IMG/VR virus record: IMGVR_UViG_3300045988_159959
Length of the DNA stretch: 64,000 nucleotides
Direction: 5' to 3' (one strand)
DNA from: a virus
Positions 9,644 through 45,460 of the stretch are shown piece by piece. The position numbers were made by a program, and so were the translations under genes. Each line of letters begins with the position of its first letter. The first letter of the stretch is position 1. The notes below the pieces were generated by a model. It was not told where the DNA came from. It searched no databases and saw only the letters and a list, made by a program, of their open reading frames with translations.

Positions 9644-9679
9644 GATTCTTTTTAATTTAATTGATTGATAAATAAATCG

Positions 9680-13101: not shown

Positions 13102-13170
13102 ATCGCTCCACCTCTATTTCTTTAATTTTTTCTATTTTCATATACCAAAATATATTAAAATTAATAAAAA

Positions 13171-27599: not shown

Positions 27600-30500
27600 C
27601 TATTTCCAACCACTTGGTACATTCTCACAATTTGTACCATAGAATGTTTGTGAATGACTTGTCACACTACTATCCGTACTGTCTGTTATCAATCTATAGT
27701 TAGGCGAACCACTTGATAATTCGTAAACCGGTACAGTAGCCAATTTTGAACAATTATAAAACATTCTGTCCATATTCACTTTTCCTACGCCCGGTGCAGA
27801 AGCTCTTGCGAATAAAGAAGTATAAGATATCGCATAAGCACTTTGTGTTCCAAGTGAAAGATTGGTACAACCGGAGAACATTTCTGTACAATCCAATGTG
27901 TTACCTAAAATATCCATAGGTGTATTCTCAAACTGATTACCTCTGTCCACATTAATAGGTCTCATTGTTGTAGAAGGCATCCCCACATAATTCCCTGTTC
28001 TTCCAAAAGAAGTCAAAGAAGTACAACTTGCAAAACATCTTCTAAGGTTAGTGAGTGTTGTCATTCCGTTAAAGAAATTTGCCGGAACCTGCTGCACTCC
28101 TGATCCTTCAAACATACTTGCAGCATTTTGTAGCTTTCCATTCTTCATATTAAAAGAAGTAATGTCAGCTACACTCTTACAATTAGCAAACATTCTTGAA
28201 GCGTTTGTTACGCTTGACGGAAGTGCTTCTCCATACGGAATTGAAAGATATGTACAGTTCTCAAAAAGAGACTGCATGTTAGTTGCTTTCGTATTAAAAG
28301 CAAACATGGCAGTAGACCATAAATCAACAAGACTTGTACAACCCACAAAACATCCCACAAATGAAACGATATTCGTACAATTCCTAAACCATATAACAGG
28401 AAGCGAGCTTATCTTTGTACAGCCTTGAAACGTATATTGCATATACTTAGCGTTCGTAGCATTGCTAAATGGTGAAGATGTAGCAGAAAGCCCACCTGTA
28501 TTTGTCAAAGCTGTACAATCTGCAAATACTGCATGAAAATCATCTACTCCACCCCCTCGTCCAAAAGTGCCACTTCCAACACAAGAAGCCAAACTTTTAC
28601 ATTCCCGGAACATAGAAGAATGGTATATACAAGAAAGGGGAACAAGTTGCCCACCCGGAAGTGATGTTACTCCACTACCATAAAAAGCACCGGCGCAAGA
28701 ATTTCCTGTCATTTTAGTAAACAACCCTGACGGAATTGATTTCAAAGACGTACAGCCTCTAAACCAACTTATAACACCTCCTGAAATAGAAGGAATTGCA
28801 TTTGTAGCAATGGAAGAAAGACTTGTACAACCCATAAAAGCACCGGGGTTTCCACCTGTAGCATCAATATTAAATGTACCCGTACTTCCTTGAATAGAAA
28901 AAGATTCAGGCCACTGCTTGATTGCTGTAGCTCTTGTATGGTTTTTGAAATTGGCACGAACTGTACCGGGACTATTTGTATTTCTACTTCCAGCTTGTAC
29001 CCTCACTTCACTTCCTACAATTTCATACACACCACTTGAAACAGAAGGTGTCTGTGGTGAACCACTATAAGTAACAATAAGGGCTTTCCATAAATAGAGG
29101 TAAATACTGCTACCGCCTGCATCCGTAATTTCTTCCCCTGTACTCACACATTGAGAATCGGAAGCAGAAGCATATACATATCCGCCGGAAGGAGAAGAAA
29201 CAGTTACCCTACCACTACCATTTGTTTGTTCTGTAGTGTTAGAATAGGTTGATCCGTCCGGCGCAGTAGTTCTTACACTAACAGAAGTATAAGCCTGTAA
29301 TACATTTTCTTTTCTTAAATAAATGTAAGTGGTTACAAGATCGTAATCCAACACAAAATCAATGTACACGTCAGAACCGGACATCGCCACATTATACTTT
29401 GTCTGCGATTGATAATTGGTAGCCGTACAAGTTGCATCGTATGTACCTGATTGAATACCTGTAAGTGTAAGTAAACCGGATGAATTTGTGTAACCACTCT
29501 TTCCTCCATAAGTTACATACGCCCTATTGATATTGTAACCATTTCTTGATTTTACAGTAATATGTGCATTGTATGTCTTATTCGATATACCAACCCTTTG
29601 CTGCGGCATGGATTCTTGATTGACCGTTACCGAATAGGTTGTTGTCTGATAATCGTAAACAGACACTTCACACACATACGTTTTCCCCATTTGCATGGTA
29701 AAGGTAGTTGTACCATCCGATCCGGTATTCTGTGTACTTAACCCTTCGGGCTTAATAGAAGCACCAGACACCGGAAGTCCCGTGTCCGAATTGTAAACAT
29801 AGAATTGCACCCTTACTTCTTTTCGCGGCATTGCAACATATACCGTTTTTGGAAGATCGTTCGGTTGCACCACTCCTACTTGATTTTCAAAATATTGTTT
29901 ACTTGCGACCCAATTGTACAGATTTCTTGGAACTTTAAAAACAACTTGTCCATTATTCGTCAAACCTTCCTGTTCACCACTGTTCAAACTGATTTTTGTT
30001 CCATTTGAAACAGAACTATTATCTTCTGTTACCACAAAAATAAGGTTGTATAAAATTTGAGACATATCAATAGTGACAGTCTGCGCGGCTCTATTTACAG
30101 TAAAAGACTGCTCCTTGTCGTTGTATTCTTCATAAGAAGCTACCGCCTTATATGTACCATTTGGAAGGTCTAATACAATTCCAGAAGAATCTTTTTGAGT
30201 ATAGGTATGCGTTTCATCCACTACAACAGTAGCACCCGTCAAAGCTACACCACCTGCTCCGATCACTTTAATAGTGGTTTTGTATGTCAGCCTTGCCAAA
30301 TCAATAGTCAAATTAGCATCCCCATAAAACTCATAGTTCTCTACAGTTACTCTTTGATAGTCATTCGTATAGCGAATATCATAAGTATATTTACCACCTA
30401 AAACGCCTTCAAAAAGAGCCTGACCGCTATCGTCCGTTACCTTCGTAAGTCCGGCAAAAGAAACTGTAACACCCTGTAAAGGAACTTTTTCACCAGTAAA

Positions 30501-33500
30501 GGTGTTGTAGTCATTTACAGTAAACACCATGTTGTAAGTAGGCATAGGATTAAAGTCAATAGCTACTTCTTTGTCACTATCCAAAGTAAGATTTCCATTT
30601 ACAGGAATCCAATTCTGTTTTTCAACCAAATAAGAGTAACTACCACCTAACAAATCATTAAAAACAGCCTTACCGTCTGTTCCTGTTCTTCTACTTTGTG
30701 AAACTACCAATGCGTTTTCATCCGATCTTTCGTTTGACACCAAAGTAACGTTTGCACCTTCTACTGCACCGGTAGAAGCATTTGTTACTGTAAATGTTAA
30801 ATCATAAAGCGGAATCAAAATCATTTCAACCGGTTCAGATTGGTCGTCCTGTACATTGATATTCTTGTTTATGGTATAATATCCATCTTTTGTGACAGTG
30901 TAAGGATAAAGACCGGGAAAAGCATAAAACACCGCATTACCATAAGAATCCGTATTTTTAAACTCTCCATTAAAAACTATCTGTGCACCGGAAATAGGAA
31001 GTCCTTGTCCATTCCTTACAATGAAAGTGATTTTTCTTTCGTAAATATCGCCTTGCAGCAAGATATATTCGATTTGAGTATCTTCTTCATCTTCCAAAAC
31101 CGATAAAAGATTATCTTTTATCGGTAAGAACAAGTTTTTCTCCACATCAACAGAATAATCACCAGGGAACAAAACTATATCAGCCTCCCCGTTTCTATTG
31201 GTTGTAAGAACATCTTCCAGAATAGAAATTTTTGCTCCCTCGATATAAGAGCCCCTATCAGAAATAACCTTGAAAATAACTTTCTTTTGAACCAAAGGAC
31301 GTATTTCATTATCTCCTATTATGTTTTTATAAGCAACCAAATAGGTTTCCATAAAGTCTTTCACACCTTCATTGCTTACCAAAGAGTTGTTTTTATAATA
31401 GGCGGCTATCACATCCTTTTCTCCCAAATGCCCTTGATAAAACGGCAAGAAAATAGGTTTTATCTTGATATCATAGATATAAACACTACTTGATGCTTGC
31501 GATCTGTCTTGGGTGAGAGAAAGCGACAAATAAGAAGTTCCTTCTTTCATTTGAAGTCCTCTGCCGTATAGGAAGTTCAAATCTACAGGACTTGCATAAG
31601 CTCTGTCTTTTCTTGACAAAATACCTCTACATTCGTAATAAACACCCGCAAATGGCAATCTTAAAATACCGTCCGTTACAGGAGCCTGTGAAGTTGTAAT
31701 TTTACTTACTTCATTTATATTCAGAACCCAACTATCATAATTGCTTGTAGAAGCAGACGTAACTTCAATATATTCCATAAATACCATACCGGCAGGTATG
31801 TCATATTTTGTATCGTACAAAGTCATTTCTACAGGCATATTTCCAGCTTCAATCGTTACAGCTTCGATCGTTGTTTCTTGTGTTTGGAACCTTACCTTTC
31901 TTGTTAATGTAATAGGATATTTAAAACTGGGAATCCAAAAAGAATAAGTTACGGGCATCGGTTCAGCGGTAGAAGCTATCATCTCTGGCGGAAGACCTTC
32001 TTCTGTAATGTTAGCAAGAACTCTCATAAGGATTCCGTCAATAATAGTTCCTTCTGTGTTTCGTTTATATTCTAACGAAGCAAAATCCCTTATCATTGGC
32101 GAATAAACTTCAACAGTTTGCCCATCTTTTGGAGAGCCTAAAGCATCTGACAATAAATTGCCCGGAGTGTTCGCACTTCCTGTATAAAATTCATTCATTA
32201 TAATAGGAAGTGAAGATTCCGAATCCGCAACAACTGACAAAGTAGCTGTAGTTGGAAATGTCGTAATCGTATCAGGTTTTTTGGTATAAAAACCAATCAA
32301 AATATCTCCTGTAAAATTAGGTAAATCCAAAGAAAAAGGATTAGAATCAATATAATAAATATACTGACTTCCTGACGCAGAAATTATAAATAATATCGCT
32401 CCATAATTACTTGAATCAAATCCACCCAACTGAAAAACACCTTTAGGGCTAATAACATGACTTGCATCCTTATTAGTAAAGATAATCGTAGGTAAACTTT
32501 GAGTAGCTTGTTCTTTGCTGGCAATAGGAAATGGCGATCCTCCCATAGAAAGACTAAAATTCTCTATTTTCAATTCATGATCTGTAGCTGTAAAATCCCC
32601 AGTTACAACAATCTGCTCCATCTCTTCCCCTCCAATAGGAGTTCCATCTTGTTGAAAAAAGAAAAACATATTGTTAAATCCGTATCCATCTCCACCATTC
32701 AAAGTAGGATTCTCAATATTGGGAAATTGTTCTATCAAATCCGTACTGAAAGAATAATCATATTGAGGTTCGTCACCTCCTTCCGGTATGAAATTAGTGC
32801 TTTCTACATTTCCATAAGATTCTTTACAAACTATCCCCTGTTTATCTTTGTTAAAAACTTCAACACCAAACTTCAAATTTTGATTATTAACAGAAGATGA
32901 TTTTACCTTAAAAGAAAGCTGATAAGTCAAATTTTCAGATACAGGAAGTAGCTTTGATTTGTCCTCTGCCGAAGATATACCCACCAAACTATTCCCTACA
33001 AAAGTCATAGCTTGAATAGGGTTTCCATCATTGTCAATATCGCTTACCACAACCACGCCGGTAGGATTGACCAAAGGATAAGCATTCAAATCAGTTATGC
33101 TTTCTGTTGTCTCATATCCTTTGGTAACGTTTAAAACAGTGTCGGTTCTGTTCCATGTAGGAGAACTGTATCCCATTGTCCAGCCCGTATCACGTGCCAT
33201 CAAAAGGGCAAAAATAAATTCTTCTTCCGTTTTGTACCGGATAAGACGAAGAAGCTCACCGAGTATTGTGCCTTCTTTATTTACAATATCAATTGTTCCT
33301 CTTTTCCGGTATTCCCTTACATAGTTATCGAACAGATATTGCATCTGTTCAAGCGTATCAACTTCATCCGTCACAAGTCCTCTGTTTTCAATAAACAATT
33401 CAAACAGAATCTTATTTGTATCAATCTCATTGTATTGCTTTGCATACAATACAACAAGGGCAAATATGTGACAGACTGTTTCCCAATATGCCTTAAAATC

Positions 33501-33644
33501 CTCACCGTCTTTCTTTATGAAAGTAGGAAGAATGCCGGGCGAAGATACTTTTTCAAGTACATTCTCCGCCCATTCCATTACGGCAGGATCGTTTTCTTCA
33601 AAGAACCGTTTGAATACGGTTTTATTGTAGATTTCCTGTGACAT
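27600..33644 (-). CDS. giant tail fibre (2014 aa): tandem CarboxypepD_reg-like beta-sandwich modules plus a C-terminal BspA-type leucine-rich repeat domain
   Basis: Repeated ~75-85-aa units of the form (V/I)xFxVxxxxGxPxxGAxV....TDxxGxAxF....G.Y.Y.V.K.GY across roughly nt 28960-31300. The last ~410 aa (roughly 27720-28840) carry at least 12 F-x-x-C-(T/K)-x-L motifs (FMGCTSLSSI, FRGCTSLKSIP, FRECKSLASC, FADCTALTNT, FQGCTKISSLP, FRNCTNIVSF, FVGCTSLVDL, FENCTYLS, FANCKSVADI, FASCTSLTSF, FSGCTNLS, FYNCSKLATVP). Confidence 0.8.
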   Translation of the reverse strand: MSQEIYNKTVFKRFFEENDPAVMEWAENVLEKVSSPGILPTFIKKDGEDFKAYWETVCHIFALVVLYAKQYNEIDTNKILFELFIENRGLVTDEVDTLEQMQYLFDNYVREYRKRGTIDIVNKEGTILGELLRLIRYKTEEEFIFALLMARDTGWTMGYSSPTWNRTDTVLNVTKGYETTESITDLNAYPLVNPTGVVVVSDIDNDGNPIQAMTFVGNSLVGISSAEDKSKLLPVSENLTYQLSFKVKSSSVNNQNLKFGVEVFNKDKQGIVCKESYGNVESTNFIPEGGDEPQYDYSFSTDLIEQFPNIENPTLNGGDGYGFNNMFFFFQQDGTPIGGEEMEQIVVTGDFTATDHELKIENFSLSMGGSPFPIASKEQATQSLPTIIFTNKDASHVISPKGVFQLGGFDSSNYGAILFIISASGSQYIYYIDSNPFSLDLPNFTGDILIGFYTKKPDTITTFPTTATLSVVADSESSLPIIMNEFYTGSANTPGNLLSDALGSPKDGQTVEVYSPMIRDFASLEYKRNTEGTIIDGILMRVLANITEEGLPPEMIASTAEPMPVTYSFWIPSFKYPITLTRKVRFQTQETTIEAVTIEAGNMPVEMTLYDTKYDIPAGMVFMEYIEVTSASTSNYDSWVLNINEVSKITTSQAPVTDGILRLPFAGVYYECRGILSRKDRAYASPVDLNFLYGRGLQMKEGTSYLSLSLTQDRSQASSSVYIYDIKIKPIFLPFYQGHLGEKDVIAAYYKNNSLVSNEGVKDFMETYLVAYKNIIGDNEIRPLVQKKVIFKVISDRGSYIEGAKISILEDVLTTNRNGEADIVLFPGDYSVDVEKNLFLPIKDNLLSVLEDEEDTQIEYILLQGDIYERKITFIVRNGQGLPISGAQIVFNGEFKNTDSYGNAVFYAFPGLYPYTVTKDGYYTINKNINVQDDQSEPVEMILIPLYDLTFTVTNASTGAVEGANVTLVSNERSDENALVVSQSRRTGTDGKAVFNDLLGGSYSYLVEKQNWIPVNGNLTLDSDKEVAIDFNPMPTYNMVFTVNDYNTFTGEKVPLQGVTVSFAGLTKVTDDSGQALFEGVLGGKYTYDIRYTNDYQRVTVENYEFYGDANLTIDLARLTYKTTIKVIGAGGVALTGATVVVDETHTYTQKDSSGIVLDLPNGTYKAVASYEEYNDKEQSFTVNRAAQTVTIDMSQILYNLIFVVTEDNSSVSNGTKISLNSGEQEGLTNNGQVVFKVPRNLYNWVASKQYFENQVGVVQPNDLPKTVYVAMPRKEVRVQFYVYNSDTGLPVSGASIKPEGLSTQNTGSDGTTTFTMQMGKTYVCEVSVYDYQTTTYSVTVNQESMPQQRVGISNKTYNAHITVKSRNGYNINRAYVTYGGKSGYTNSSGLLTLTGIQSGTYDATCTATNYQSQTKYNVAMSGSDVYIDFVLDYDLVTTYIYLRKENVLQAYTSVSVRTTAPDGSTYSNTTEQTNGSGRVTVSSPSGGYVYASASDSQCVSTGEEITDAGGSSIYLYLWKALIVTYSGSPQTPSVSSGVYEIVGSEVRVQAGSRNTNSPGTVRANFKNHTRATAIKQWPESFSIQGSTGTFNIDATGGNPGAFMGCTSLSSIATNAIPSISGGVISWFRGCTSLKSIPSGLFTKMTGNSCAGAFYGSGVTSLPGGQLVPLSCIYHSSMFRECKSLASCVGSGTFGRGGGVDDFHAVFADCTALTNTGGLSATSSPFSNATNAKYMQYTFQGCTKISSLPVIWFRNCTNIVSFVGCFVGCTSLVDLWSTAMFAFNTKATNMQSLFENCTYLSIPYGEALPSSVTNASRMFANCKSVADITSFNMKNGKLQNAASMFEGSGVQQVPANFFNGMTTLTNLRRCFASCTSLTSFGRTGNYVGMPSTTMRPINVDRGNQFENTPMDILGNTLDCTEMFSGCTNLSLGTQSAYAISYTSLFARASAPGVGKVNMDRMFYNCSKLATVPVYELSSGSPNYRLITDSTDSSVTSHSQTFYGTNCENVPSGWK

Positions 33645-33867: not shown

Positions 33868-35565
33868 TTATTTAGCTTTTAATGTTTGCAAGTAAATGTA
33901 AGCCTTAATACAGTCTTCTTTTGAAAGAACTTTAGGGAAGATAGCTAAGTTCTTGAAAGCTATTTTTGTATAATTTGTACCATTATGCCCTATCATTAAC
34001 ATTTGTCCAAAATCAACTGTATCTCCCGGCGTTACCTTTTGTAAAGAATTAAAATCTAAATAAACTGAACCCTTAGAGGTAACGGCTTTTATAGAATTTC
34101 CAACAACATTAGTTCCTAACTCTGCATTAATATACACATTCATTCTACCGGTTAATGAATAATTATAAAATCTAAATGAACCAAACTTAGCAATACCGGC
34201 AATTTTTATTGCATCTTCTTTCAGAAACTCCCATTCGCCAACAGTTGTCCAATCCTTGCCAACTGTAAATGCGGAACTCTGAATCTTATCATCCACACCA
34301 TCTGTTACCAGATAGCCCGCATATTCCCCTTCTTCATTGTAGCCACTCCCTTCTGCAAAACCAAAATTAGACAGCACAAGATTATTACCATTGCCCGTTA
34401 TGTTAGCTATGGTAGCCCTGTCGGTATCTTCGTTGGTTTTCCCGACTACTGTCCATGCTTGGTCGGGGAATAGCCAGGGGTATTCTTGTTTGTAGTAGTT
34501 TAGTACCTTTTCATCATCTTCGTCTGTTGAGAAATACCCATTACAGATTGTTTGACCGGCGATAGCAGCTCTGGCAAGAAAAGTGGCATACACATTTCTC
34601 CACAAGTAATACAATCCGGGATTAGCTATAAATTCTTTTGAGCTAAGTGACCGTGATTCACCTGTAAATAAATTAATTATAGTTGTAATATCTTTATTTC
34701 TTTTACAGACTAATAGCATGAATTGATTAATGCGAGGAACAAGGTTAACCCCAGTTGATGGTTGAAAATTTATGTGAGTACCACTGTAATTAATAGAAAA
34801 GTCTTTAGTTTCATTTTTCCCACACAAAATCATATTCCTTGCCGGATCATCCTGAAATGGAATAAACGCCGTGTACACCGTGTAAGTATCCTCGAAGTTA
34901 AGCTCCTTCTCTGTTACTGCAAAGTCGTCTACTCCGTCACCGAGGATGAAGCCGGGGTATGAGGGGAGTTGCTCGATGATTATATTAAGATCAATTGCTT
35001 TTGGATTAGATATCCAGATATAAATTCGAGATTGATCCCATCCGGCTTCAAAAGGTTGATATATCTTATAAATACCATCCTTTTCTATTCGTTCAATATC
35101 CTCACCGAAACCCCCTTTTGTTACCCTCAATAGTGCACCATCTTTCAGTCCCATCACTTTTAAGGTGAAATCATAGATATCTCCTTCTTTAGCTACACTT
35201 GTAGCATTTGAATAGATATTTGTATTTTTGACTGTAGAAGGTATGTTCAAATTCATTTTAGAAGAAGTATGAGTTTGTGTGCCACCAATACCAGTTAAGT
35301 TCCCGTACCCCCAACCATTAAAATTTTGATTGTATCCACCAACTCCAGACATCCCTGCCCAACCAAAGTTCTTCATCTGTAAATCATGCCCATTACCTGT
35401 AAGGTCTTTCCATACAGGATTAGTAGACATATCTTCATTGGTTAATCCTTTGGCAGACCATCTTGCAATCATACCAGGGATGTTTGGGAAGGGTGTACCG
35501 CCACCTCCCCCAAACCTTCTTCTAAAAGGAATTGCGTTTATGTTTCCTAATAGCATCATAATCAT
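33868..35565 (-). CDS. tail fibre / receptor-binding-type protein with two LamG (concanavalin-like) style modules (565 aa)
   Basis: Internal duplication: DLTGNGHDLQMKNFGWAGMSG...ILGDGVDDFAV versus NITGNGNNLVLSNFGFAEGSG...LVTDGVDDKIQ. Located in the fibre gene block. Confidence 0.45.
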   Translation of the reverse strand: MIMMLLGNINAIPFRRRFGGGGGTPFPNIPGMIARWSAKGLTNEDMSTNPVWKDLTGNGHDLQMKNFGWAGMSGVGGYNQNFNGWGYGNLTGIGGTQTHTSSKMNLNIPSTVKNTNIYSNATSVAKEGDIYDFTLKVMGLKDGALLRVTKGGFGEDIERIEKDGIYKIYQPFEAGWDQSRIYIWISNPKAIDLNIIIEQLPSYPGFILGDGVDDFAVTEKELNFEDTYTVYTAFIPFQDDPARNMILCGKNETKDFSINYSGTHINFQPSTGVNLVPRINQFMLLVCKRNKDITTIINLFTGESRSLSSKEFIANPGLYYLWRNVYATFLARAAIAGQTICNGYFSTDEDDEKVLNYYKQEYPWLFPDQAWTVVGKTNEDTDRATIANITGNGNNLVLSNFGFAEGSGYNEEGEYAGYLVTDGVDDKIQSSAFTVGKDWTTVGEWEFLKEDAIKIAGIAKFGSFRFYNYSLTGRMNVYINAELGTNVVGNSIKAVTSKGSVYLDFNSLQKVTPGDTVDFGQMLMIGHNGTNYTKIAFKNLAIFPKVLSKEDCIKAYIYLQTLKAK

Positions 35566-35574
35566 ATAATTATA

Positions 35575-35949
35575 TTAAATCCCAATACTCAAAGAAGAAA
35601 CAGTCGTACCCTCTTTCACAATTTTCTGAACCATGTACATAAGAGGATTGCCGATATTTGCATTCACTTCGGCTTCTGAAATAGTATATTCCATACCACC
35701 GGCAAGAATCACTTTAATTGTACCTGCCGCAAGAGGAATGATAACAAAAGAAACCGGTTGACCGTTTTGGTCGATAAGTGTTATATCTTCATCAATAGAA
35801 GCAAAGTTCCATGCACTGCTGATTAAAGAAGGTGCTGCATCACCATTATTAGTTATCAGCTTATTGGAGTTAGCTGTTACTGTTCTTTTTATGATATCCA
35901 TTGCAATGATTTTTAAATTGTTTGTTTTATCTAAGTAATTACTTGACAC
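35575..35949 (-). CDS. hypothetical protein (124 aa); GTG start
   Basis: Track ORF; its start codon is GTG (35947-35949). Immediately downstream of the invertible segment. No recombinase motifs. Confidence 0.45.
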   Translation of the reverse strand: MSSNYLDKTNNLKIIAMDIIKRTVTANSNKLITNNGDAAPSLISSAWNFASIDEDITLIDQNGQPVSFVIIPLAAGTIKVILAGGMEYTISEAEVNANIGNPLMYMVQKIVKEGTTVSSLSIGI

Positions 35950-36002
35950 AAAAATAACCTTTCTTTTTGAGAAAATACAAACTTACCCTCTTTTCTTTTT
36001 CT

Positions 36003-36050
36003 ACACCTCTTACAAATACATTTCCCTTCTTTTAGTAGGGAGAGGGGGAG
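36003..36050. repeat. left 48-bp inverted repeat (IR-L)
   Basis: ACACCTCTTACAAATACATTTCCCTTCTTTTAGTAGGGAGAGGGGGAG is the exact reverse complement of 37606-37653. Checked base by base; identity stops on both sides. Confidence 0.95.
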
Positions 36051-36055
36051 GAAGA

Positions 36056-36823
36056 ATGCTGAATTGGCAAAGTTGGAGTAATTTTGTTTTGGAAGGAGGG
36101 ACAACGGGAAACATATTGTACCTTCCTAACGTTAAAATGGCTGATATTGAAGGTAATAAATTTGATTACATTGGTTTTAGTCCTAACTACAATGTAAACG
36201 GAAGCTATACGGAAGGCACAGAGGTTGGATTGAGCATACAAGAAACGACAACAGATTTATTAGCTTATAACGGACAAAAAAGTCCGGCACATGATGATAA
36301 TGTGAAAGGAGTGGTAATTTTGCCGGGAGGATATACTGTTTATTATGGCAAATCTTCCGGTGGATTTGCTGCACATGGTGCGGGTAATTATTATTGTTCT
36401 GGAAGCTATGGTAGCCAAAATGCAAGTGAATTAACTGGAAGTCAAGCAGACCAATATATGCAACCCGCAGGCGCACCGGGTGGAGACGGTACTTTTGGTT
36501 TTAAATGCTCTTATGAGGTAAATTTTGCATCGCCTCGAACCAACCCTATCACCTCTACAAAGACTATCCCTATCTCATCTATTTTTGGAGGAACCTCTAA
36601 AGGAAAAGCAGGGTATATAAATACTAATGGCGGACAAAGAACCGGTGCAAGTGTTTATGGCGGAGCCGGATATGGCGATTCATGGGAAGGAGTAGTAGAA
36701 GGTGTGAGGAAAGCTGGTTATGGAAGTGGACAAATGTCTTCTCCGGCAGATGAAGATGCAGGAAATCTGATCTTACCCGGTGACGGTATTGTCTGCTTAT
36801 ATTATCATAATGAACCAATCTAA
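36056..36823 (+). CDS. alternative (silent) fibre C-terminal cassette, glycine-rich tip; the only plus-strand gene in the window
   Basis: The reading frame is open and continuous from IR-L (36005...) through GG-GR-M(36056)LNWQSW... to ...GDGIVCLYYHNEPI. It is homologous to the present fibre C-terminus (...GAGIVCIYYHNNPI; IPISSIFGG vs IPIQSVFGG; GGAGYG vs GGGGYG). Confidence 0.7.
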   Translation: MLNWQSWSNFVLEGGTTGNILYLPNVKMADIEGNKFDYIGFSPNYNVNGSYTEGTEVGLSIQETTTDLLAYNGQKSPAHDDNVKGVVILPGGYTVYYGKSSGGFAAHGAGNYYCSGSYGSQNASELTGSQADQYMQPAGAPGGDGTFGFKCSYEVNFASPRTNPITSTKTIPISSIFGGTSKGKAGYINTNGGQRTGASVYGGAGYGDSWEGVVEGVRKAGYGSGQMSSPADEDAGNLILPGDGIVCLYYHNEPI

Positions 36824-36833
36824 AAACAAAATA

Positions 36834-36855
36834 GGGAGAGCTTAAATACTCTCCC
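36834..36855. terminator. bidirectional hairpin terminator between the two convergent tip cassettes
   Basis: GGGAGAG-CTTAAATA-CTCTCCC (7-bp perfect stem) with T-rich runs on both strands (CTTTAATTTG on plus, TATTTTGTTTTT on minus). Confidence 0.6.
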
Positions 36856-36880
36856 CTTTAATTTGTTGATATTCAGTTAT

Positions 36881-39800
36881 TTAAATAGGATTGTTGTGGT
36901 AATAGATACAAACGATACCTGCACCTTCGTTGTAATCATTTGTTCCACTTCCTATTTTAAAACAAGTTCCACCGGCTCCATATCCTGCCGATCCATTTGG
37001 ATTTGCTTCTCCATAACCACCTCCACCACTGGCTTTACAGTTCGTAGTAGAAATGAAGTAGCTTAATCCACCGGTTCCTATACCGCCAAACACAGACTGA
37101 ATAGGAATGGTTTCGCTTGCTCTAATTCCGGTATTGTAGTCTGGACCTTGTGTTCCAAGTCTTCCGTCGCCACCTTCTCCGCCTTGCATAGTTGTAGCGG
37201 TAGATGTAGTTTGCTCGCCATTTCCATAGCTACCACCACTACCGGCTGTTAGAACAGAAGTTGCAAGACCGCCTTCTGTTCTTCCATAAACGAAAAGACC
37301 ACTATCTGTTTCTCCATTTAAAGCAAATTCCCAATAATCCTGTCTGTGATCCTGTCCGTTGGACATGTCGCCTAAAAAGGCGGTTATTTCATTTCCTAAA
37401 CTTTGATTGTAACGAACATATAAACCGGGAGAAGATGAACCGGACATACTGTGTCTAAAGTCTATTTGAGTAATCCAACCTATACCACCAACACCGTCAC
37501 TGGAAGTTATTATGTTCTTTTTGTAAGCGATCATACCGCCATCTCCACCCATACAACCACCAATCCATTGAGGTGCATTAGGAGCGTTGTCAGTATTTTT
37601 ACCGACTCCCCCTCTCCCTACTAAAAGAAGGGAAATGTATTTGTAAGAGGTGTCAAGTATGTAGTTCTTTTGGTCTGATGTGATTTGTACCAACTTATTA
37701 GGTTTGGTTAAAGTGTATTCCAAAGAGAAAGATTGCCCGAATATCACATCAAATACACCGTTCGTTGTAAACGTATCGTACCCTTCGGACGTGATTGTGA
37801 TCGAATAGTTTCCGGCAGGTACTTTTGGAATACTTGCCGTATAAGTTGCCGGCACTGCCGATCCTTGATGTGACTTTCCATCCGAATCCACCAATGTAAT
37901 TTGTCCACCGGCAGGCAGTACCTTTATATGTACATAATAAAGCGGTGTAACGTTTAGCTGAACCTGCATACCGTTACTTGTCACATTAATTCTTTGTGTT
38001 ATCTCTTTAGAATAATCTCCTTCCGGCATGTACAAATCGTAAGTTCCGTAAGTAACGTTATTAAACGTTGCCGTCCCGGTAGATGTACTTGCAGTTTGAA
38101 GAGCAATAGTTTCACCCGGGTTTCTAGGCTGGATTTCGCTTGGAACATATCCACTTATAGAACCGGCTCTTTTTATCTGTACTTCAAAATAGGAAAAGAT
38201 TTCCTCCATATATACCTCGTACTTATTACCGTCACCCTCACTAATGGTTACCGTACCTTCTTTCGATACATATCCATCTTTTTGTACTGTTATTTTAAAT
38301 GTTCCTGTCGGAAGATATAAAATCAAAGCTCCACTTGCAGGCGTTGTACCGGTTGCGTAAACTTGTTCTGTAGTCTGATCGGACACAACCACTTGAACGC
38401 CTGATATAATGTCGCCAAACAAATTATTTTTATGAATAGTAATGTTCAATTCATTACCCGGCTGTAATGCTACCTCAATTGTTTTAGCCTCTGTTACCGT
38501 ACCGGCATTTCCTGTAGCCGTCAAATATGTATCAGCAGAAACCTCATAGTTGTAACTCTGATTAAGTTCAACCGACAAAACAGCTTCACCTTCATCGTTT
38601 GTAGTTCCTGTTACTGTACCGGCAATAGAAGTCATTTTGACAAGTGCACCGAAAATAGGTGTTGAAATGATATTGCGGACACGAGCAAAAGCACGGGCAT
38701 AACGTTGAGAGGCTTTTGTGTCGTAAATTGCGCCCCCAGTATTAGCTGCCATAGTCCAAGCATTGTTTTCATCTCTTTGTGTTGAACTCCAAAGACGAAA
38801 AGTTCCAAACACCGTTCTCCCACCGATTTTTGTCATACATGCTTCAATCTGATCTTTGTAATAGTATGCTAATGTAAGCTCACCCAAAGAAGGTAAATAT
38901 CCCGTATATCCTTCTGGAAACAAATCGGTTGTAGTACGACAAGAATATGCAGCAGGAGCGTTACTTCCTAATTGTTCTACGAGCTTGTCAGTATTACTTT
39001 CTCCCGCAAAATCTTCCATTGCAATACTTCTTGCAGTGGTGGTAACAATCCCATCAATAAGTCCACCTGAATTAGCCCACTCTATGTTAGCGAAATTAGC
39101 AGCTTTACTTATCACAAATTGGCTACCAGAAACCATTACAGCAACACCTACAGTATCGTCAATAGTACTGGAATACTGATCCTTTTCATATAGCTTGTTG
39201 TTTTTGCCAAGAATGTACACTCCTTCTTCCATACCACCTTTAAAGGGAAATGGGAAGAAAGGTAAAACATTACCAGCTGTATTTCTAATCTGAACTTCTC
39301 TTGTGCCAGCTTCTACATTTGAATAATAAGCAGAATCAGTGCCTTCTACTATTGAAGTCCACATTTTACTCGCCGGTATAGCAGCAGTAGCGTCTATTAA
39401 CTCTAAAGCAGTATTTACGGCCGATAAATTATCATGAAGCACATCTGCTTCTCCAGTAGAAGGTAAGTATCCTGAACCTTTCGGGAAACCGGGAGCAACT
39501 ACATCCTTACAATAACGAGCGGCACTACTACTATCCAGCAAAGACACCATATAATCTGTATAGGCTTTACCATGAAAAAGTTGAGGCAAATAAGCTATAA
39601 AATTAGGGCCATCAAAAGGAGAGTCCAAATCAGTATCACTTCCCCAAGTTTGAGTATTCTGCAAATAAGTAGAAGATATCATAAATGCTGCATTGTCAGT
39701 AGCAACACCTACGCCAATAGCCTCGCTGGATGATTTTCCTGAACTTACCCATTCTTCTGTTGTGTAACGATTACCAGAGTAATCACAGATATATACTCCG

Positions 39801-42800
39801 TTAGGAATTGGGTTGTATTCGTATGTACAGAAAGGGCGTGAAGGATAACTGTTACTAATTTTCCCTACAGTACCAACAGCATTGCTATCCCAAGCAAAAT
39901 AATAAGCATTTGCTGCACCATTTTGCGAACTTGTCCAATAATCATCTTCTTGAATAGGTGAACCTGCTGTTTTATTCATTGCAGCCGTTATTACAGATTT
40001 ATTGTAATACGCCACTTTCCATTGTCCAGTAGAAGGCAAATACCAAGAACCTACTCCAAAACCTTCTGTAGAATAGTTATTGCATTTACCTGCCGCAATA
40101 TCATTTGCACTCGATTGAAAAGAAACGATAGCCTCTGTATTTGTCTTCCCACTAAAATCAATTAAAGCAACTCTCCATAATGGGTTTACAAAAGCACCTG
40201 CAATAATCTCAGCAGTAGTTGACCAAGGAGCTTCAACAAGATTATTTAGTGCCATAAAATCAAAATCTCTGCTTCTTACATCTGTAATAACACCCACACA
40301 AGTCTTTGATGAATCCAATTCAGTAGACCAAGTTTTATCTCCATATACAAAATCACCTACTTTTGGACGAAATACAAAAGGTATCTCCTTTTGTTCAGTT
40401 ACCTTAAATGTTACTTCTGTGTTATTTGAAACCAAAAGTTCTTTATTGATAGCAGGGGTATTTACATTCAACACACCGGACTGCGCTTCATAAGGTGAAG
40501 GCGGTGTCATTGTGTAGTTGTAATTTCCATACAGAACTTTGTTTTCCGGCACTTCCGTACTTGTAAACTTCTTTCCATAGAAAGAAATAGTTATGTTAAG
40601 GCTCTTTATATCGTCTGTAGACAAAGAGCCTTCATCTGCCGAGGCAAGATTTAAACTAAAAGCAGTGCTTTTGAACAATTCTTCCGCATCAAAAATAAGA
40701 TCGGAAAGCTGGATTCTTTGAATGGTATCGTTTGTTAAAGGTAGTGTATTTGGACTTTCTACACTTCCCCAATTAGCAACAATTTTTAAATTTTCGGGAA
40801 CACCAGAAACTTTTACACCAAAGTCCAAGGGCTTATTGTAATTTATATCTACAATGGGCCCTATCATTATTATACTCAAAATATTAAATACAAATCCTGC
40901 ATCGACATTAAAAACAACATAATCATTTGTAACAGTCGTTCCTTCCTCTTTCTTTACTCCTGTAAGCGTAAAATTCCTTTTCTTTGCATCCCAACTTCCA
41001 TTCCATCCATCTATCCTATTTCGATTCAAAACATTGGCTGCGTTCATATTACTTGAACTGCCTGCATTATATTCTGTTATAGGAGAAAAAACCACACCAT
41101 TGGGAAAGTATGTCTTCATCTGATCTCCTGGCACACCAGCTTCCGGTATGGTATATGTTTCATTTTCAGGTAAGACAAACGTACCTGAATAATCTGCATC
41201 ATCATCCTGTGACCATTCAAAATCCCCACCAGCAAAATTCATAGTGGCAACACCATTTGTACCTGTCGTACCTTTGTATTTATTAGACGGATCAAGTCGA
41301 TCTACCATTTCCACAACGGCATTCTGAATAGGAGAACTGTCAATTTCTTTTTTTACCGTAAACGTAACAGTAGAAACCTGCTGCATATTAAGTGTAACAG
41401 TTTGCGCACCGTCATTTACAGAAAAACTTCCGGACAAATCAACATAACCGGTTTTTGTTGCCGTATAGGTGTAATTCCCATTTCTATTTTGGAACTCAAC
41501 CACACCACTATCATTTGTACTTCCTGTGTCAACCTGCACGTTTTCTCTTTTAAGTGTAATATTTACACCACTAACACTTGGTATGGTCTGAAATTTAATT
41601 GTATATTTCAAATAATCTGACAAGTCAAGTTCCAAAGTTTTAACTTCTGTGCCCACTTGGAAAGTTCCATCCGGCACATCAATCAAATCGGTATTATCCG
41701 TTTCACTTGTAGGGATAGAATAGACATAATTTCCCGAAGGTAAACTTATCGTAGCAATACCTTGTTGATTGGTAACGATCGTTTCCGGAAGTGCCCTTAC
41801 TTTTGCTTTACCTGCTTTTGTAGCTTGGCTTATCACAATCTTTACATTTGCCAAATTACCGCTTTTGGCAGTTGTATGAAAAGTGACAACAGCACCGGCA
41901 TTAATTGTAATATCTACACTTTTTTCTGCTTCTTCAATCTGTACCGTACCACTGCCACCAACATACCCATCTTTTGAATAGGTGTATGTATGTGTACCGG
42001 TAGAAAGATTGGTTGCTGCAATACCTCCATTTGCGGTCGTAAGCGTTTCCGAACCGTCAATAACAATCTGAACGCCATCCACAGGAGAACCCAAATTATC
42101 CTTTACCGTAAATGTTGTTTCAAAGCCATACGTTAATTCAACTTCCTTTATTTCGTCAGCATCATTAATGCTTCCTACACCTTCTTCCGGAGAGTAACCC
42201 GTAAGCGAAGCGTTCCAATCATAAGCACCATTTACAACCTGTACCGGATCAGTCGTGCCATCTTCCTTTGTTGTAAGTATAGTAGAACCATCCACAAGAG
42301 CCTCACCACTTACGTTAATAGTAACACCTTGTAAAACCGTTTTTTCAGCCGCACTAACTTTGAAAGACAAATTCCAGATTTTCTTTAATATCTGGGTAAA
42401 GGTTTCTTCACCAGAAACTTCAAGAGATAATTCTTCACCTTTGTAACCACCCTTTGCAAAAGTAGCGATATAACTTCCTGCTTTCAAGCTAACCGTAGCT
42501 TCACCACTTGCGTTTGTTGTAAGAGCATCTTCTCTACCGGATATCTGAATTTCAACATCCTGCAAAAGATTAGGAGAAGCCATATTGTCCTTTACAACAA
42601 ACGTAACATCATAAGACATTGCTGTAACTGTAACTGCTACGTTCTTGTCTGCGTTTGCTACAGTAACACTTCCTTCCTGCTGTACATATCCAGCTTTAGT
42701 AACTATATAAGAGTATGTGCCATTAGAAAGCGGAACCGTTACCAAACCACCCTGTGAAGTCTGATAATCATTATCATTTACATGAAGATTTGCATTACCA

Positions 42801-45460
42801 ACCGCAACACCTTCATCTGTTGTTACAGCAAAAGTAATGTTATACTTTCTATATTCCATATCCACCGTAACCAACGGTATATCTGCGCTTGCTACCGTCA
42901 AATCATCAGAATAATCATCCATTCCGGTAGCTGTAATGGTAAATGGATATGTACCGTTCTTTAACTGCAAAGATACTTGCCCGTTTGATTGTGTCTGATA
43001 AGTGTTATTATTGATAGTTACCGTAGCGTTTTCAATAGGCTGTCGCTCCGGGTCTCTTACAGACAAGATTACATTATACAATCTTGCTTGTAAATTGACA
43101 ACCGAACTATTATCACTATCCAAAACAGTAACCGAAGAATTACCATCGTAATAACCGGATTTTGTAACAGTGTAAGGATACGTGCCGTTTTGCAAACTTA
43201 CAGTAACCTGACCTTTATCGTTGGTAGGGTAGGAACTGCTATTAATATTTACTGCCGCGCCCTGAACCGGTTCGTTGCTATCACTATCCAAAACAGTAAT
43301 AACAACATTGTAATGTTTCAAATCAAGCGTTCTTTCGATATTAACATTCTGTCCCTGTACATTAAACGAACCGGTCAAATCATCATACCCTCTTTTTGTA
43401 ATAGTATAATTATATTCACCGTTCTTCAATTTTGTAGTTGCCTGCCCTAAACTGTTTACAGGTAGTGCAGACGGTTGTCCTTGTATTGTTACAAGTGCGC
43501 CTTCTGCCGGCGTACCTTGATTTACTTGATAAACATTAAACAAAACATCGTACAAGAAATAATCCAACTCAAATGTCACATCTGCATTTGAATTATTAAC
43601 TGTAATTGATCCATTCAATGTATCATATCCGGTTTTTTCAATCGTCACAGGGTATTGACCGTTTACAAGCGGAATCTCCACTTCTCCTTGTTGATTGGTA
43701 GGATATTGACCGTTATTTACTTTAACAACAGCGTTAGCGATAGGATCGTTCTCTGCGTCTTTTACAATAACTGTAATCGTCCATACGGTAAACTCCATTT
43801 CTACATTTACCTGTGCATTGCCATCCTGCACGACTACATTGTTGGAATAATCATCGTATCCCAACTTTGAAATCAAATAAGGATAATTCCCATTTCTCGC
43901 CGACAAAGTAGCAACACCCTCTATATTGGTAGTGGTTGTTCTATTGTCCATTGTCACATTTGCGTAAGGCACTGCCGCGCCTCTTTCATCCCGTACGCGG
44001 AAAGTAACTGTATAAGGTGCTCTAACCATTTCCACATCAATAGAAACACCGCCATTCAGAACAACAAACGTTCCTTCTACCGGAATATATCCTTGCAAAG
44101 AAGCAATATATGAGTATTGTCCGTTTGCAAGCTGCAAAGAAGCCTGTCCCTGTTCATTTGTTGAAATGCCATTGTTGCCAATAGAAATATTTACACCTTC
44201 TACCGGGTTCCCATCTGAATCTTTTACATTGAAAAATGCTGTCTGATAAAGATTCAGAGAACTGTCATTAATACCGACAAACAAATCTTCTGATTCCGCC
44301 GGATAGAACAAAGGTGAAAGATTGCTATCAGAATCATACAAGATATTGCCATCCTGATCCCGCATAATAAATCCTCTGATACGCGGCAATTGATTCGCCG
44401 GGACTTGCTGATCGTAATACGGGAAAAAGTATTCATCCGGCACATATTTCACACCTTCTGTCTTTTTCACAATATCCAATAAATCGTCCCATTCAACAAC
44501 ATCACCCGGTGTCCAAAAACGGAAATCCAAATACTTAGTAAGGTTTACTTGGATATTCTGGCGCACTGTAGCTACATCGTAATCCGGCTGTAATTGCACA
44601 CGGAAATCCAATCCTCTTTCAGAACCAACATAAAACCAATCTATGTTTTTAAGAGAAATTCCTACGGCTTTTCCCTCTATATTCAAATCCGAAAGACTGA
44701 AATACCCTTGTACCTGTTCAAGCAATGTTCCTAATTCATCCTCCGTAAAGAAAATACCATTCTGTGATACGATATAAAGGTTATAAATGCCTTGTTCGTT
44801 TAATCCAGCAGCCATCACCTTTAAAACACGATCATCAATACCGTTCAATACTTGTGTCCAGTATTCTACAGTATTCTTACTTAGAACATTCAGATTGTTT
44901 TTGATACGAATACGAAAAGTTTCATCGTCTTCGCTATCCCGTCCGCCAATAGCATAATACTCATTCGTACATTCGATATGCCCTTGTGGTTGTGGATTGA
45001 CATTCGTAATACTATTAGGCGCAACATTGGTAGTATAGCCTGCATTCACGCTCCTTACCTTTACATAGCCATAACCGCTTTCACCCACTGTAAGAGATTC
45101 GTCCACCTGAAAACGAATACCATTCTTACTTACAAAAGTAACAGTGGTATCATATACAGTGCCCGGATCGGCAGACACCCTAATATAAGTAGAAGAACCG
45201 AGTGCTCCCTTTCGAGGACTTACCCCATACAAAGCAGCCGCCTTATCCAAATAAACGCCGGTTGCCGTGTCTGGGAATATCTGCGCTTCTTTTATGGCAA
45301 TATCTTTCATCGCCTTTTGAGCCACTTTAGCTACACCGAATGCAGTTGCGTTCACAACCGAACCGTCCGCCACATTACTTACTTTGGCAGTTTTATCCAA
45401 AAACATCTCTATAAAGAGATTTTTCAAATTGGTTATCGTTGCACTTGTTTTCGTTATCAT
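36881..45460 (-). CDS. giant baseplate-J-like / tail-fibre fusion protein (2859 aa)
   Basis: The N-terminal ~330 aa resemble baseplate J/gp6 (…AQIFPDTATGVYLDKAAALYGVSPRKGALGSSTYIRV…AIGGRDSEDDETFRIRIKN). They are followed by at least 12 tandem ~78-aa CarboxypepD_reg-like modules (roughly nt 41200-44240), three ~190-aa DUF1566-like modules (GSWYLPSTGQW / GSGYLPSTGEA / YTGYLPSLGEL; roughly 38690-40360), more beta-sandwich modules, then a glycine-rich tip. Confidence 0.8.
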   Translation of the reverse strand: MITKTSATITNLKNLFIEMFLDKTAKVSNVADGSVVNATAFGVAKVAQKAMKDIAIKEAQIFPDTATGVYLDKAAALYGVSPRKGALGSSTYIRVSADPGTVYDTTVTFVSKNGIRFQVDESLTVGESGYGYVKVRSVNAGYTTNVAPNSITNVNPQPQGHIECTNEYYAIGGRDSEDDETFRIRIKNNLNVLSKNTVEYWTQVLNGIDDRVLKVMAAGLNEQGIYNLYIVSQNGIFFTEDELGTLLEQVQGYFSLSDLNIEGKAVGISLKNIDWFYVGSERGLDFRVQLQPDYDVATVRQNIQVNLTKYLDFRFWTPGDVVEWDDLLDIVKKTEGVKYVPDEYFFPYYDQQVPANQLPRIRGFIMRDQDGNILYDSDSNLSPLFYPAESEDLFVGINDSSLNLYQTAFFNVKDSDGNPVEGVNISIGNNGISTNEQGQASLQLANGQYSYIASLQGYIPVEGTFVVLNGGVSIDVEMVRAPYTVTFRVRDERGAAVPYANVTMDNRTTTTNIEGVATLSARNGNYPYLISKLGYDDYSNNVVVQDGNAQVNVEMEFTVWTITVIVKDAENDPIANAVVKVNNGQYPTNQQGEVEIPLVNGQYPVTIEKTGYDTLNGSITVNNSNADVTFELDYFLYDVLFNVYQVNQGTPAEGALVTIQGQPSALPVNSLGQATTKLKNGEYNYTITKRGYDDLTGSFNVQGQNVNIERTLDLKHYNVVITVLDSDSNEPVQGAAVNINSSSYPTNDKGQVTVSLQNGTYPYTVTKSGYYDGNSSVTVLDSDNSSVVNLQARLYNVILSVRDPERQPIENATVTINNNTYQTQSNGQVSLQLKNGTYPFTITATGMDDYSDDLTVASADIPLVTVDMEYRKYNITFAVTTDEGVAVGNANLHVNDNDYQTSQGGLVTVPLSNGTYSYIVTKAGYVQQEGSVTVANADKNVAVTVTAMSYDVTFVVKDNMASPNLLQDVEIQISGREDALTTNASGEATVSLKAGSYIATFAKGGYKGEELSLEVSGEETFTQILKKIWNLSFKVSAAEKTVLQGVTINVSGEALVDGSTILTTKEDGTTDPVQVVNGAYDWNASLTGYSPEEGVGSINDADEIKEVELTYGFETTFTVKDNLGSPVDGVQIVIDGSETLTTANGGIAATNLSTGTHTYTYSKDGYVGGSGTVQIEEAEKSVDITINAGAVVTFHTTAKSGNLANVKIVISQATKAGKAKVRALPETIVTNQQGIATISLPSGNYVYSIPTSETDNTDLIDVPDGTFQVGTEVKTLELDLSDYLKYTIKFQTIPSVSGVNITLKRENVQVDTGSTNDSGVVEFQNRNGNYTYTATKTGYVDLSGSFSVNDGAQTVTLNMQQVSTVTFTVKKEIDSSPIQNAVVEMVDRLDPSNKYKGTTGTNGVATMNFAGGDFEWSQDDDADYSGTFVLPENETYTIPEAGVPGDQMKTYFPNGVVFSPITEYNAGSSSNMNAANVLNRNRIDGWNGSWDAKKRNFTLTGVKKEEGTTVTNDYVVFNVDAGFVFNILSIIMIGPIVDINYNKPLDFGVKVSGVPENLKIVANWGSVESPNTLPLTNDTIQRIQLSDLIFDAEELFKSTAFSLNLASADEGSLSTDDIKSLNITISFYGKKFTSTEVPENKVLYGNYNYTMTPPSPYEAQSGVLNVNTPAINKELLVSNNTEVTFKVTEQKEIPFVFRPKVGDFVYGDKTWSTELDSSKTCVGVITDVRSRDFDFMALNNLVEAPWSTTAEIIAGAFVNPLWRVALIDFSGKTNTEAIVSFQSSANDIAAGKCNNYSTEGFGVGSWYLPSTGQWKVAYYNKSVITAAMNKTAGSPIQEDDYWTSSQNGAANAYYFAWDSNAVGTVGKISNSYPSRPFCTYEYNPIPNGVYICDYSGNRYTTEEWVSSGKSSSEAIGVGVATDNAAFMISSTYLQNTQTWGSDTDLDSPFDGPNFIAYLPQLFHGKAYTDYMVSLLDSSSAARYCKDVVAPGFPKGSGYLPSTGEADVLHDNLSAVNTALELIDATAAIPASKMWTSIVEGTDSAYYSNVEAGTREVQIRNTAGNVLPFFPFPFKGGMEEGVYILGKNNKLYEKDQYSSTIDDTVGVAVMVSGSQFVISKAANFANIEWANSGGLIDGIVTTTARSIAMEDFAGESNTDKLVEQLGSNAPAAYSCRTTTDLFPEGYTGYLPSLGELTLAYYYKDQIEACMTKIGGRTVFGTFRLWSSTQRDENNAWTMAANTGGAIYDTKASQRYARAFARVRNIISTPIFGALVKMTSIAGTVTGTTNDEGEAVLSVELNQSYNYEVSADTYLTATGNAGTVTEAKTIEVALQPGNELNITIHKNNLFGDIISGVQVVVSDQTTEQVYATGTTPASGALILYLPTGTFKITVQKDGYVSKEGTVTISEGDGNKYEVYMEEIFSYFEVQIKRAGSISGYVPSEIQPRNPGETIALQTASTSTGTATFNNVTYGTYDLYMPEGDYSKEITQRINVTSNGMQVQLNVTPLYYVHIKVLPAGGQITLVDSDGKSHQGSAVPATYTASIPKVPAGNYSITITSEGYDTFTTNGVFDVIFGQSFSLEYTLTKPNKLVQITSDQKNYILDTSYKYISLLLVGRGGVGKNTDNAPNAPQWIGGCMGGDGGMIAYKKNIITSSDGVGGIGWITQIDFRHSMSGSSSPGLYVRYNQSLGNEITAFLGDMSNGQDHRQDYWEFALNGETDSGLFVYGRTEGGLATSVLTAGSGGSYGNGEQTTSTATTMQGGEGGDGRLGTQGPDYNTGIRASETIPIQSVFGGIGTGGLSYFISTTNCKASGGGGYGEANPNGSAGYGAGGTCFKIGSGTNDYNEGAGIVCIYYHNNPI
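37606..37653. repeat. right 48-bp inverted repeat (IR-R), inside the fibre ORF
   Basis: Exact reverse complement of 36003-36050. It encodes (D)TSYKYISLLLVGRGG of the 2859-aa protein. Confidence 0.95.

Follow-up and report, generated by a model that had tools for sequence, protein, structure and literature searches.

An inverted repeat inside a giant tail-fibre gene of a human-gut phage: a probable tip switch, possibly flipped by homologous recombination

The stretch of DNA considered here, the window, comprises 64,000 nucleotides of the IMG/VR virus record IMGVR_UViG_3300045988_159959; it is part of a human-gut scaffold of 108,491 bp, where it occupies positions 14449-78448, and the scaffold comes from a Human Microbiome Project (HMP) sample. 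It carries a giant tail-fibre gene whose last part lies between two inverted repeat arms, and which had been predicted from the sequence to be an invertible fibre tip. A repeat search of the 64 kb found the arms, IR-L (36003-36050) and IR-R (37606-37653), to be complementary at 48 of 48 positions with 1555 nt between them, and the complementarity breaks off sharply at either end, so that search and inspection agree with the perfect, sharply bounded 48-bp repeat of the original prediction. With the composition of the window about 4e-19 perfect inverted repeats of at least 48 nt would be expected, and the longest other one it contains has 17 nt, a length in line with chance. IR-R lies within the minus-strand open reading frame (ORF) 36881-45460 (2859 aa), where it encodes (D)TSYKYISLLLVGRGG on the minus strand and forms the junction between body and tip of the fibre; IR-L encodes TSYKYISLLLVGRGG on the plus strand, in the same codon phase, and its frame stays open through ...GRGG-GR-MLNWQSW... 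to a stop at 36821-36823. Homologues of IR-L, 38-68 nt long, occupy the equivalent position in relatives. Reverse-complementing 36051-37605 in silico yields an unbroken fibre of 2875 aa, and this, together with the translations, bears out the claim that both arms share one codon phase and that the alternative C-termini are in frame. The constant body of this fibre or baseplate protein (37654-45460, minus strand; about 2600 aa) begins with a Baseplate_J domain, after which come many CarboxypepD_reg/PEGA immunoglobulin-like repeats, and is closed by a conserved junction peptide, DTSYKY(I/V)S(L/M)L(L/I)VGRGG.

The invertible segment proper (36051-37605) consists of two convergent tip cassettes with a common terminator between them. 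Tip A (36881-37606, minus strand), glycine-rich, is currently joined to the fibre body and hence expressed, and its orthologues are silent in 19 IMG/VR relatives. Tip B (36050-36823, plus strand) is currently silent, and its type is joined to the body in a series of relatives, which are cited here by L numbers (L009, L011, L181-L233, L237 and L238). Of the predicted lengths, the 257 aa of tip B stand, and the 240 aa of tip A become 241 when counted, as for tip B, after GRGG. The two tips can be aligned over their last ~90 aa only (37% identity, E 7e-10), a stretch that includes the two shared motifs that had been pointed out, IPI(S/Q)S(I/V)FGG and GIVC(I/L)YYHN(N/E)PI; the proposed homology of the tips is thus supported, and is confined to that final part. 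A hairpin at 36833-36856, placed by the original prediction at 36834-36855 as a bidirectional terminator, does score terminator-like on each strand.

Tip B is, as had been stated, the sole plus-strand gene, all remaining credible genes of the window being on the minus strand. Its ATG at 36056 is peculiar to the lineage of the window; elsewhere the frame runs straight out of the arm, and the codon, absent from relatives, is incidental. A motif scan found no Bacteroidetes-type -7 motif on the plus strand of the flank of IR-L (35902-36002), and a sigma-70 promoter scan gave nothing exceeding chance, in keeping with the earlier remark that the plus-strand ORF has no convincing promoter. On its minus strand the same non-coding flank, outside IR-L, carries two -7 motifs of the form TAnnTTTG (TAAGTTTG and TATTTTTG; starts at 35985 and 35956, span 35949-35985) that face a 108-aa ORF, the next gene; as putative promoters they fit re-initiation of transcription past the cassette terminator. 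Neither the tips, nor this ORF, nor a 565-aa ORF beyond it has a Pfam, PHROG or PDB-sequence match, and an AlphaFold2 model of tip B, built from an alignment of 12 sequences, has a pLDDT (the program's own confidence score) of 35 and is unusable. From their position, their glycine-rich composition and the evolutionary pattern described below, the tips would have a receptor-binding role.

The exact 48-mer of the window has no match in IMG/VR, and further junction copies there were found through a codon-degenerate pattern of the junction. With a hypothetical fusion of body and tip B as query, the B-tip homologues recovered were either body-fused or stand-alone ORFs of ~255-290 aa on contigs of 98-105 kb, several of which start with the junction peptide. 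Three relatives (L003, L004 and L005) have the layout of the window, that is fibre, arm, tip A, tip B, arm and 108-aa ORF, with arms of 67-68 nt, and several IMG/VR junction copies have a long body joined to tip B with tip A silent. Pairwise blastn comparisons bring the two arrangements together. Window positions 36005-37652 map reverse-complemented, at 85% identity, onto L011 (IMGVR_UViG_3300000293_000009), while the flanks are colinear at 87-90%; between L003 and L009 the flanks are 92-94% identical and the segment is inverted at 99.2%; and between L005 and L015 the segment is inverted at 97%, with the body flank colinear at 94% and the other flank lying past the end of L015. The breakpoints fall within the arms in all three pairs, and these opposite orientations between colinear flanks substantiate the central claim of an invertible segment with swapped in-frame C-termini.

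A census anchored on the 108-aa ORF gave 52 informative IMG/VR loci, of which 19 have the two-tip cassette and 33 a single B tip without a repeat; the cassette is also present in several contigs from ENA. Tip A is the expressed one in window/L002, L003, L004 (a k=127 contig), L005, L235, L236 and L240, assemblies that come from at least four pipelines, and additional B-expressed copies are L237, L238 and L239/L241. Since the nearest neighbour of every A-expressed genome is B-expressed, at least three independent inversions are called for, and in one instance L003 differs in orientation from L189/L192 yet has a dS (synonymous divergence) of ~0 from them in both tips. Contigs of Logan are uninformative on orientation since they break at repeats longer than 31 nt. 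Segment-only contigs had been considered as a sign of mixed orientations and were rejected as such, the ~1.6-kb P0007 contigs being fragments of low coverage that also contain the 108-aa ORF. As a separate observation, the tip of P0013 (793 aa, on a 9.3-kb ENA contig) is mostly A-like (75% to the A tip of L003), with its last ~130 aa nearer to B tips (69%), and is apparently an A/B chimera formed by recombination in the homologous C-terminal glycine-rich part.

The silent cassettes are maintained. Full length was found in 19 of the 21 that were checked, the exceptions being L186, whose silent cassette is cut after 24 aa, and L187, shorter by 16 aa. The median dN/dS (ratio of non-synonymous to synonymous divergence) is 0.30 for pairs of silent A tips (n=62); expressed B tips give 0.32 and the fibre body 0.38. 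Silent tips are therefore under purifying selection, and as they have neither a conserved start nor a promoter motif they must become expressed by inversion often enough for selection to act on them. Between the expressed A tip of L003 and its silent counterparts in L189/L192 there are six non-synonymous changes and no synonymous ones. More broadly, when the A tips of L003 and L005 are compared with those of L187/L189/L192/L211/L213, the expressed A tips of near-identical strains have lineage-specific non-synonymous changes and almost no synonymous ones, and that of L005 carries a GRY insertion; a tip may thus be under diversifying selection while it is expressed.

The arms themselves evolve in concert. 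Their inner boundary is constant, directly after the GRGG codons, and the outer boundary varies, giving exact runs of 38-68 nt. In the 39 nt before the inner boundary 15 columns are polymorphic among 23 genomes, and 13 haplotypes can be told apart. Within a single genome the mismatches between the two arms average 1.39 nt, most genomes having none or just one at the boundary base, as against 6.73 nt when arms were paired at random between genomes (the minimum among 2000 shuffles being 3.87). The lineage of the window alone has three haplotypes, and each occurs in both arms. The arms are thus kept identical whatever their sequence, as would be expected if inversion is driven by homology and accompanied by gene conversion. 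Substitutions can spread from arm to arm through gene conversion by homologous recombination, but not through site-specific exchange at a fixed core, so concerted arms point to homology. Five genomes depart from this pattern: in L184, L185, L186, L190 and L194 the arms differ at 4-5 positions of the inner half and have only 18-26 nt in common. These may be locked or decaying switches, and four of them (L184-186 and L190) look like cases of tip replacement, the body arm together with its B tip having been imported from single-tip phages. That the broken silent cassette, L186, is one of these five is a weak hint that the frequency of inversion may depend on the identity of the arms.

A dedicated recombinase was looked for in the window and beyond it. 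There is no Resolvase or Phage_integrase Pfam match among the neighbours of the cassette and 45 further ORFs of the window, which agrees with the earlier statement that no Gin/Hin-type or tyrosine invertase is visible there, and precomputed Pfam calls for scaffold positions 5392-86125 (74% of the scaffold) include no serine or tyrosine recombinase. The remaining ~28 kb was viewed in relatives only, namely 10 kb upstream of the portal gene (L027, L043 and L061), the part beyond the DUF5675 gene (L079, L090 and L095) and the stretch between (L159, which lacks the cassette), and has no recombinase either; TnpB, PAPS reductase, BACON, holin and Bro/Rha proteins were found there. In this composite of scaffold and relatives the wider search for an invertase that had been proposed thus came back empty at the level of Pfam. 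When 2738 ORFs from 18 cassette-bearing and 34 single-tip contigs were clustered, only the silent A tip was associated with the cassette (18 of 18 versus 0 of 34), and no other ORF cluster came close.

The phage does encode genes of general recombination. A minus-strand cluster at 3614-8127 comprises an SbcC-like gene (3614-6025), a UvsX/RecA-like gene (6012-7094) and an SbcD-like gene (7072-8127), with matches to Pfam RecA at 5.7e-70 and to the UvsX-like, SbcC-like and SbcD-like PHROGs at 6.9e-66, 1.3e-37 and 2.2e-49, and these genes are candidate machinery for a homology-driven inversion. Two other candidates were discarded. TnpB (IS605 OrfB/Cas12f-like) genes are frequent in relatives, with one to several per relative (L003 6725-7909; L005 1-529; L027 776-1984 and 4173-5396; L043 2380-3591; L095 10758-11960), one of them near the fibre cassette; TnpB is absent from the Pfam matches of the window, varies in position and has no association with the cassette, and was rejected as the invertase. 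A diversity-generating retroelement was rejected as well, there being no reverse-transcriptase Pfam match and the repeats being inverted and identical.

In our best reading the switch would operate as follows. The DNA of the junction is present a second time, in inverted orientation, 1.6 kb downstream, with two convergent promoter-less tips between the copies. Recombination between the arms, either intramolecular or between replicating copies, would invert the segment and so join the body in frame to tip A, the state of the window, or to tip B, and the accompanying gene conversion would hold the arms identical. The common terminator would stop whichever tip is read, and a promoter in the flank would restart transcription of the genes downstream. 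The catalyst might be the phage UvsX/RecA-SbcCD or the host RecA, acting on the 38-68 bp of identical arms, and the change of tip would alter the receptor bound and hence the host range. We have little doubt that the segment is a real invertible tip switch. Homology-dependent flipping is favoured because no dedicated invertase was found, and to the two together, a tip switch flipped by homology, we assign a probability of about 0.5. A narrower version of this, a phase-variation device that relies on homology only, in which an in-frame inverted duplication of 40-70 bp is flipped at a useful rate by the UvsX/SbcCD recombination-replication machinery of the phage, is put forward tentatively, at slightly under even odds.

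Several points weigh against this proposal. All 19 cassettes in IMG/VR are B-expressed, and such uniformity of orientation would not be expected under fast unbiased switching, unless selection by the host fixes the majority state. The orientations were compared between genomes, and the exact in-silico inverted fibre of 2875 aa is absent from the protein collection that was searched. The recombinase survey was a Pfam-based one of phage sequences and a composite, with scaffold positions 86-108 kb and 1-5.4 kb taken from relatives and one stretch from a relative without the cassette, and many ORFs of the phage have no annotation. A block of 18-26 nt (TACAAATACGTTTCCCTT) is present in all arms, those of the genomes with mismatched arms included, and is a possible recombinase site. 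Lastly, arms of 38-68 bp are short for recombination of the RecA type. In T4 roughly 50 bp of homology is needed for efficient recombination, which is within the range of the arms.

In a rival reading the same switch is flipped in trans, at the conserved part of the arms, by a serine (Mpi-like) or tyrosine (Tsr-like) invertase of a Bacteroidales host or by an unrecognized phage protein. This is a real possibility, though one we would bet against. Every classical fibre switch or shufflon has a dedicated invertase (established knowledge; see the reviews cited within PMC9881135 and 10.64898/2026.02.14.705889), the likely Bacteroidales hosts possess invertases that act in trans, the unannotated ORFs of the phage leave room for one, and all arms share an invariant block, TCnTACAAATACrTyTC. 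The survey described above found no Resolvase or Phage_integrase match in what it covered and no gene that co-occurs with the cassette, and the block (TACAAATAC...) is just as conserved in single-tip phages, so it is explained by protein sequence and codon usage. By eye, the arms have neither the Mpi core ARACGTWCGT nor a gix/hix-like AAACCnnGGTTT dyad. The behaviour of the arms also counts against it: their inner 25 nt differ at ~10 sites between lineages and are identical within genomes, and the outer boundary lies anywhere between 38 and 68 nt, whereas a fixed recognition site neither requires nor accounts for within-genome identity and a varying boundary.

It is also conceivable that there is no programmed switch, and that the inverted duplication is a by-product of tip swapping between phages, with inversions as rare accidents and the silent cassette as a reservoir for recombination. 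The single orientation of the IMG/VR cassettes, the observation of the two orientations in separate genomes, the genomes of the L184 type with their mismatched arms, and the strong mosaicism at the junction motif, for instance between L003 and L009 where the segment is more alike (99.2%) than its flanks (92-94%), would all be in keeping with this. We consider it improbable, because purifying selection is as strong on silent as on expressed cassettes and the silent ones are nearly all full-length, because orientation has changed at least three times among the close relatives sampled, once at a dS of ~0, and because frame-preserving arms, promoter-less convergent cassettes and a single common terminator have been kept across diverged lineages. 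Very improbable, finally, is an artefact, be it that the plus-strand ORF is a gene expressed on its own or that the assemblies are in error at the repeat. There is indeed a purine-rich GGAGG ahead of the ATG at 36056, and repeats can mislead assemblers, but that ATG is missing in relatives, where the frame continues from the arm, and its strand has no Bacteroidetes -7 motif; moreover the arms are shorter than read lengths, L004 is a contig assembled at k=127, and both orientations come from several pipelines.

The proposed switch may be compared with several known systems. As in the G segment of phage Mu, the C segments of P1/P7 (Gin/Cin serine invertases), Pin of e14 and Min of p15B, the inverted repeats lie inside a fibre gene; as in Mu G and P1 C, a constant N-terminus is in frame with one of two C-termini, one being expressed at a time, and both fusions are found in relatives; and the presumed function is likewise a bet-hedging of host range. 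Unlike in Mu and P1, no serine invertase (Resolvase plus helix-turn-helix) lies adjacent to the segment or elsewhere in the phage sequence surveyed, and the arms have no 26-34-bp dyad of the gix/cix/hix AAACCnnGGTTT type, though this is a weak test. Also in contrast to those phages, the segment consists of two tips and a terminator without assembly genes of the U/U' type, arm length and sequence vary by lineage and are homogenized within genomes, and the phage looks non-temperate. Of the likeness to Mu G and P1 C drawn in the original prediction, the logic of switching is therefore supported by the relatives and the mechanism probably differs, as no phage recombinase was found. Given that inversion has happened repeatedly although no phage recombinase was found, the missing enzyme does not refute the switch.

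With regard to mechanism, closer parallels may be sought among inversions between longer repeats. The sap cassettes for the S-layer (surface layer) of Campylobacter fetus undergo RecA-dependent programmed inversion, and genome isomerization mediated by repeats is known in herpesviruses and plastids. In cyanophages, 30-kb isomers arise by repeat-mediated genome isomerization (10.64898/2026.02.14.705889). As in these cases there are identical inverted repeats, no dedicated site-specific recombinase, and identity that would be kept by gene conversion; the difference is that those repeats are hundreds of bp long and the arms here are 38-68 bp, placed in frame inside a structural gene, with any dependence on RecA/UvsX being our conjecture. 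With regard to the tips, the gp37/gp38 adhesins of the T-even phages swap at short conserved His-box and glycine-rich motifs. There as here a short conserved junction motif, a linker for recombination, stands between the constant fibre and its variable, glycine-rich tip; mosaic tips occur here too. The swap in T-even phages takes place from genome to genome and is irreversible, whereas here the genome itself contains the alternative tip, in inverted form.

Switching of a C-terminal domain by inversion within coding sequence, in gut organisms, is likewise a feature of the R64 Rci/PilV and Rin shufflons, the latter of a Bifidobacterium prophage (PMC6109161), and of the intragenic invertons of Bacteroidales (PMC10028968, PMC9881135). 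Unlike the present cassette, those shufflons and invertons are accompanied by a tyrosine or serine recombinase gene next to them, and their sites are as a rule several in number, short and conserved. A shufflon would have at least three sfx-like repeats and an adjacent tyrosine recombinase, and there are two arms per genome here and no Phage_integrase match; for an Mpi-like inverton (core ARACGTWCGT) the best partial match, ATACGTTTCC, reaches 6 of 10 positions, and class I arms are poorer. Full-text searches of the literature returned no description of such a switch in gut phages.

Around the cassette, the 108-aa ORF (35575-35901, minus strand) lies immediately downstream and is kept in relatives with and without the cassette, being present at 54 IMG/VR loci. 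The original prediction had given this neighbour 124 aa; gene callers place its start at ATG 35901, so that 108 aa is the more likely length, and the absence of recombinase motifs stands, there being no Pfam or PHROG match. Beyond it lies the 565-aa ORF (33868-35565), of which ~1.1 kb at 34287-35417 has 87% nucleotide identity to the gene of a hypothetical protein in the crAss-like phages cr55_1 and cr1_1, and, in part, matches a 'pentaxin family protein' of phage csAssE-Sib. It would seem that a probable adhesin module was recently swapped between unrelated families of gut Bacteroidales phages. As the megablast matches to cr55_1 and cr1_1 are confined to part of this ORF, a crAss-like identity of the phage itself was rejected. 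Further downstream of the cassette is a second giant ORF (27600-33644, 2014 aa) with weak CarboxypepD_reg and DUF285 matches, which varies between 1648 and 2014 aa across relatives and is thus another variable fibre-like protein.

Regarding the phage as a whole, the fibre body is 65% identical across 2090 aa to the fibre of MT835500, which lacks the cassette, and neighbours of the fibre gene match the sheath-initiator and tail-tube-initiator families. These, with Baseplate_J, indicate a contractile tail and, together with DnaE and RecA, likewise speak against a crAss-like phage. The phage encodes DnaE with an intein, DnaB, a ligase, SF1 and SF2 helicases, a portal, a terminase and BACON-domain proteins. 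The gene for DNA polymerase III alpha (~8210-14400) contains an intein, which has Hint and LAGLIDADG domains, and is split into more than one ORF in the window (964 aa called), as compared to a single ORF of 1295 aa in L017; the window further has three HNH ORFs, an RRXRR ORF and one ORF with a NinG/Rap match. Judging by the BACON-domain proteins the hosts are likely Bacteroidales, and the phage fits, by description only, the Bacteroides-infecting 'Gratiaviridae' as described in PMC8008677. Neither the junction motif nor tip homologues were found in the GTDB representative genomes, so that neither host nor prophage was recovered there, and as no integrase was found either the phage looks non-temperate. 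Many contigs of the family in IMG/VR (L024, L033, L035, L037, L044, L045, L053-L055 and others) begin or end ~50-280 bp upstream of the portal gene, which hints at a preferred genome terminus or at a repeated break in assembly.

Invertible fibre segments are known from the textbooks as belonging to temperate enterobacterial phages with a Gin-type invertase; the present one belongs to widespread human-gut phages of ~100 kb, seemingly non-temperate and probably infecting Bacteroidales, of which about one third of the family genomes sampled carry the cassette, with no invertase found. If general recombination flips the segment, then searches for recombinase genes miss programmed inversions of this kind, and short in-frame inverted duplications in receptor-binding genes merit a systematic search. 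The conserved junction motif also represents a natural splice point, preserving the frame, for the engineering of tips. If the switch is as proposed, these phages would have a reversible switch of host range, matching from the phage side the phase variation of capsules and surface proteins in Bacteroides, and such a switch may be part of the reason why phage and host persist together in the gut over long periods.

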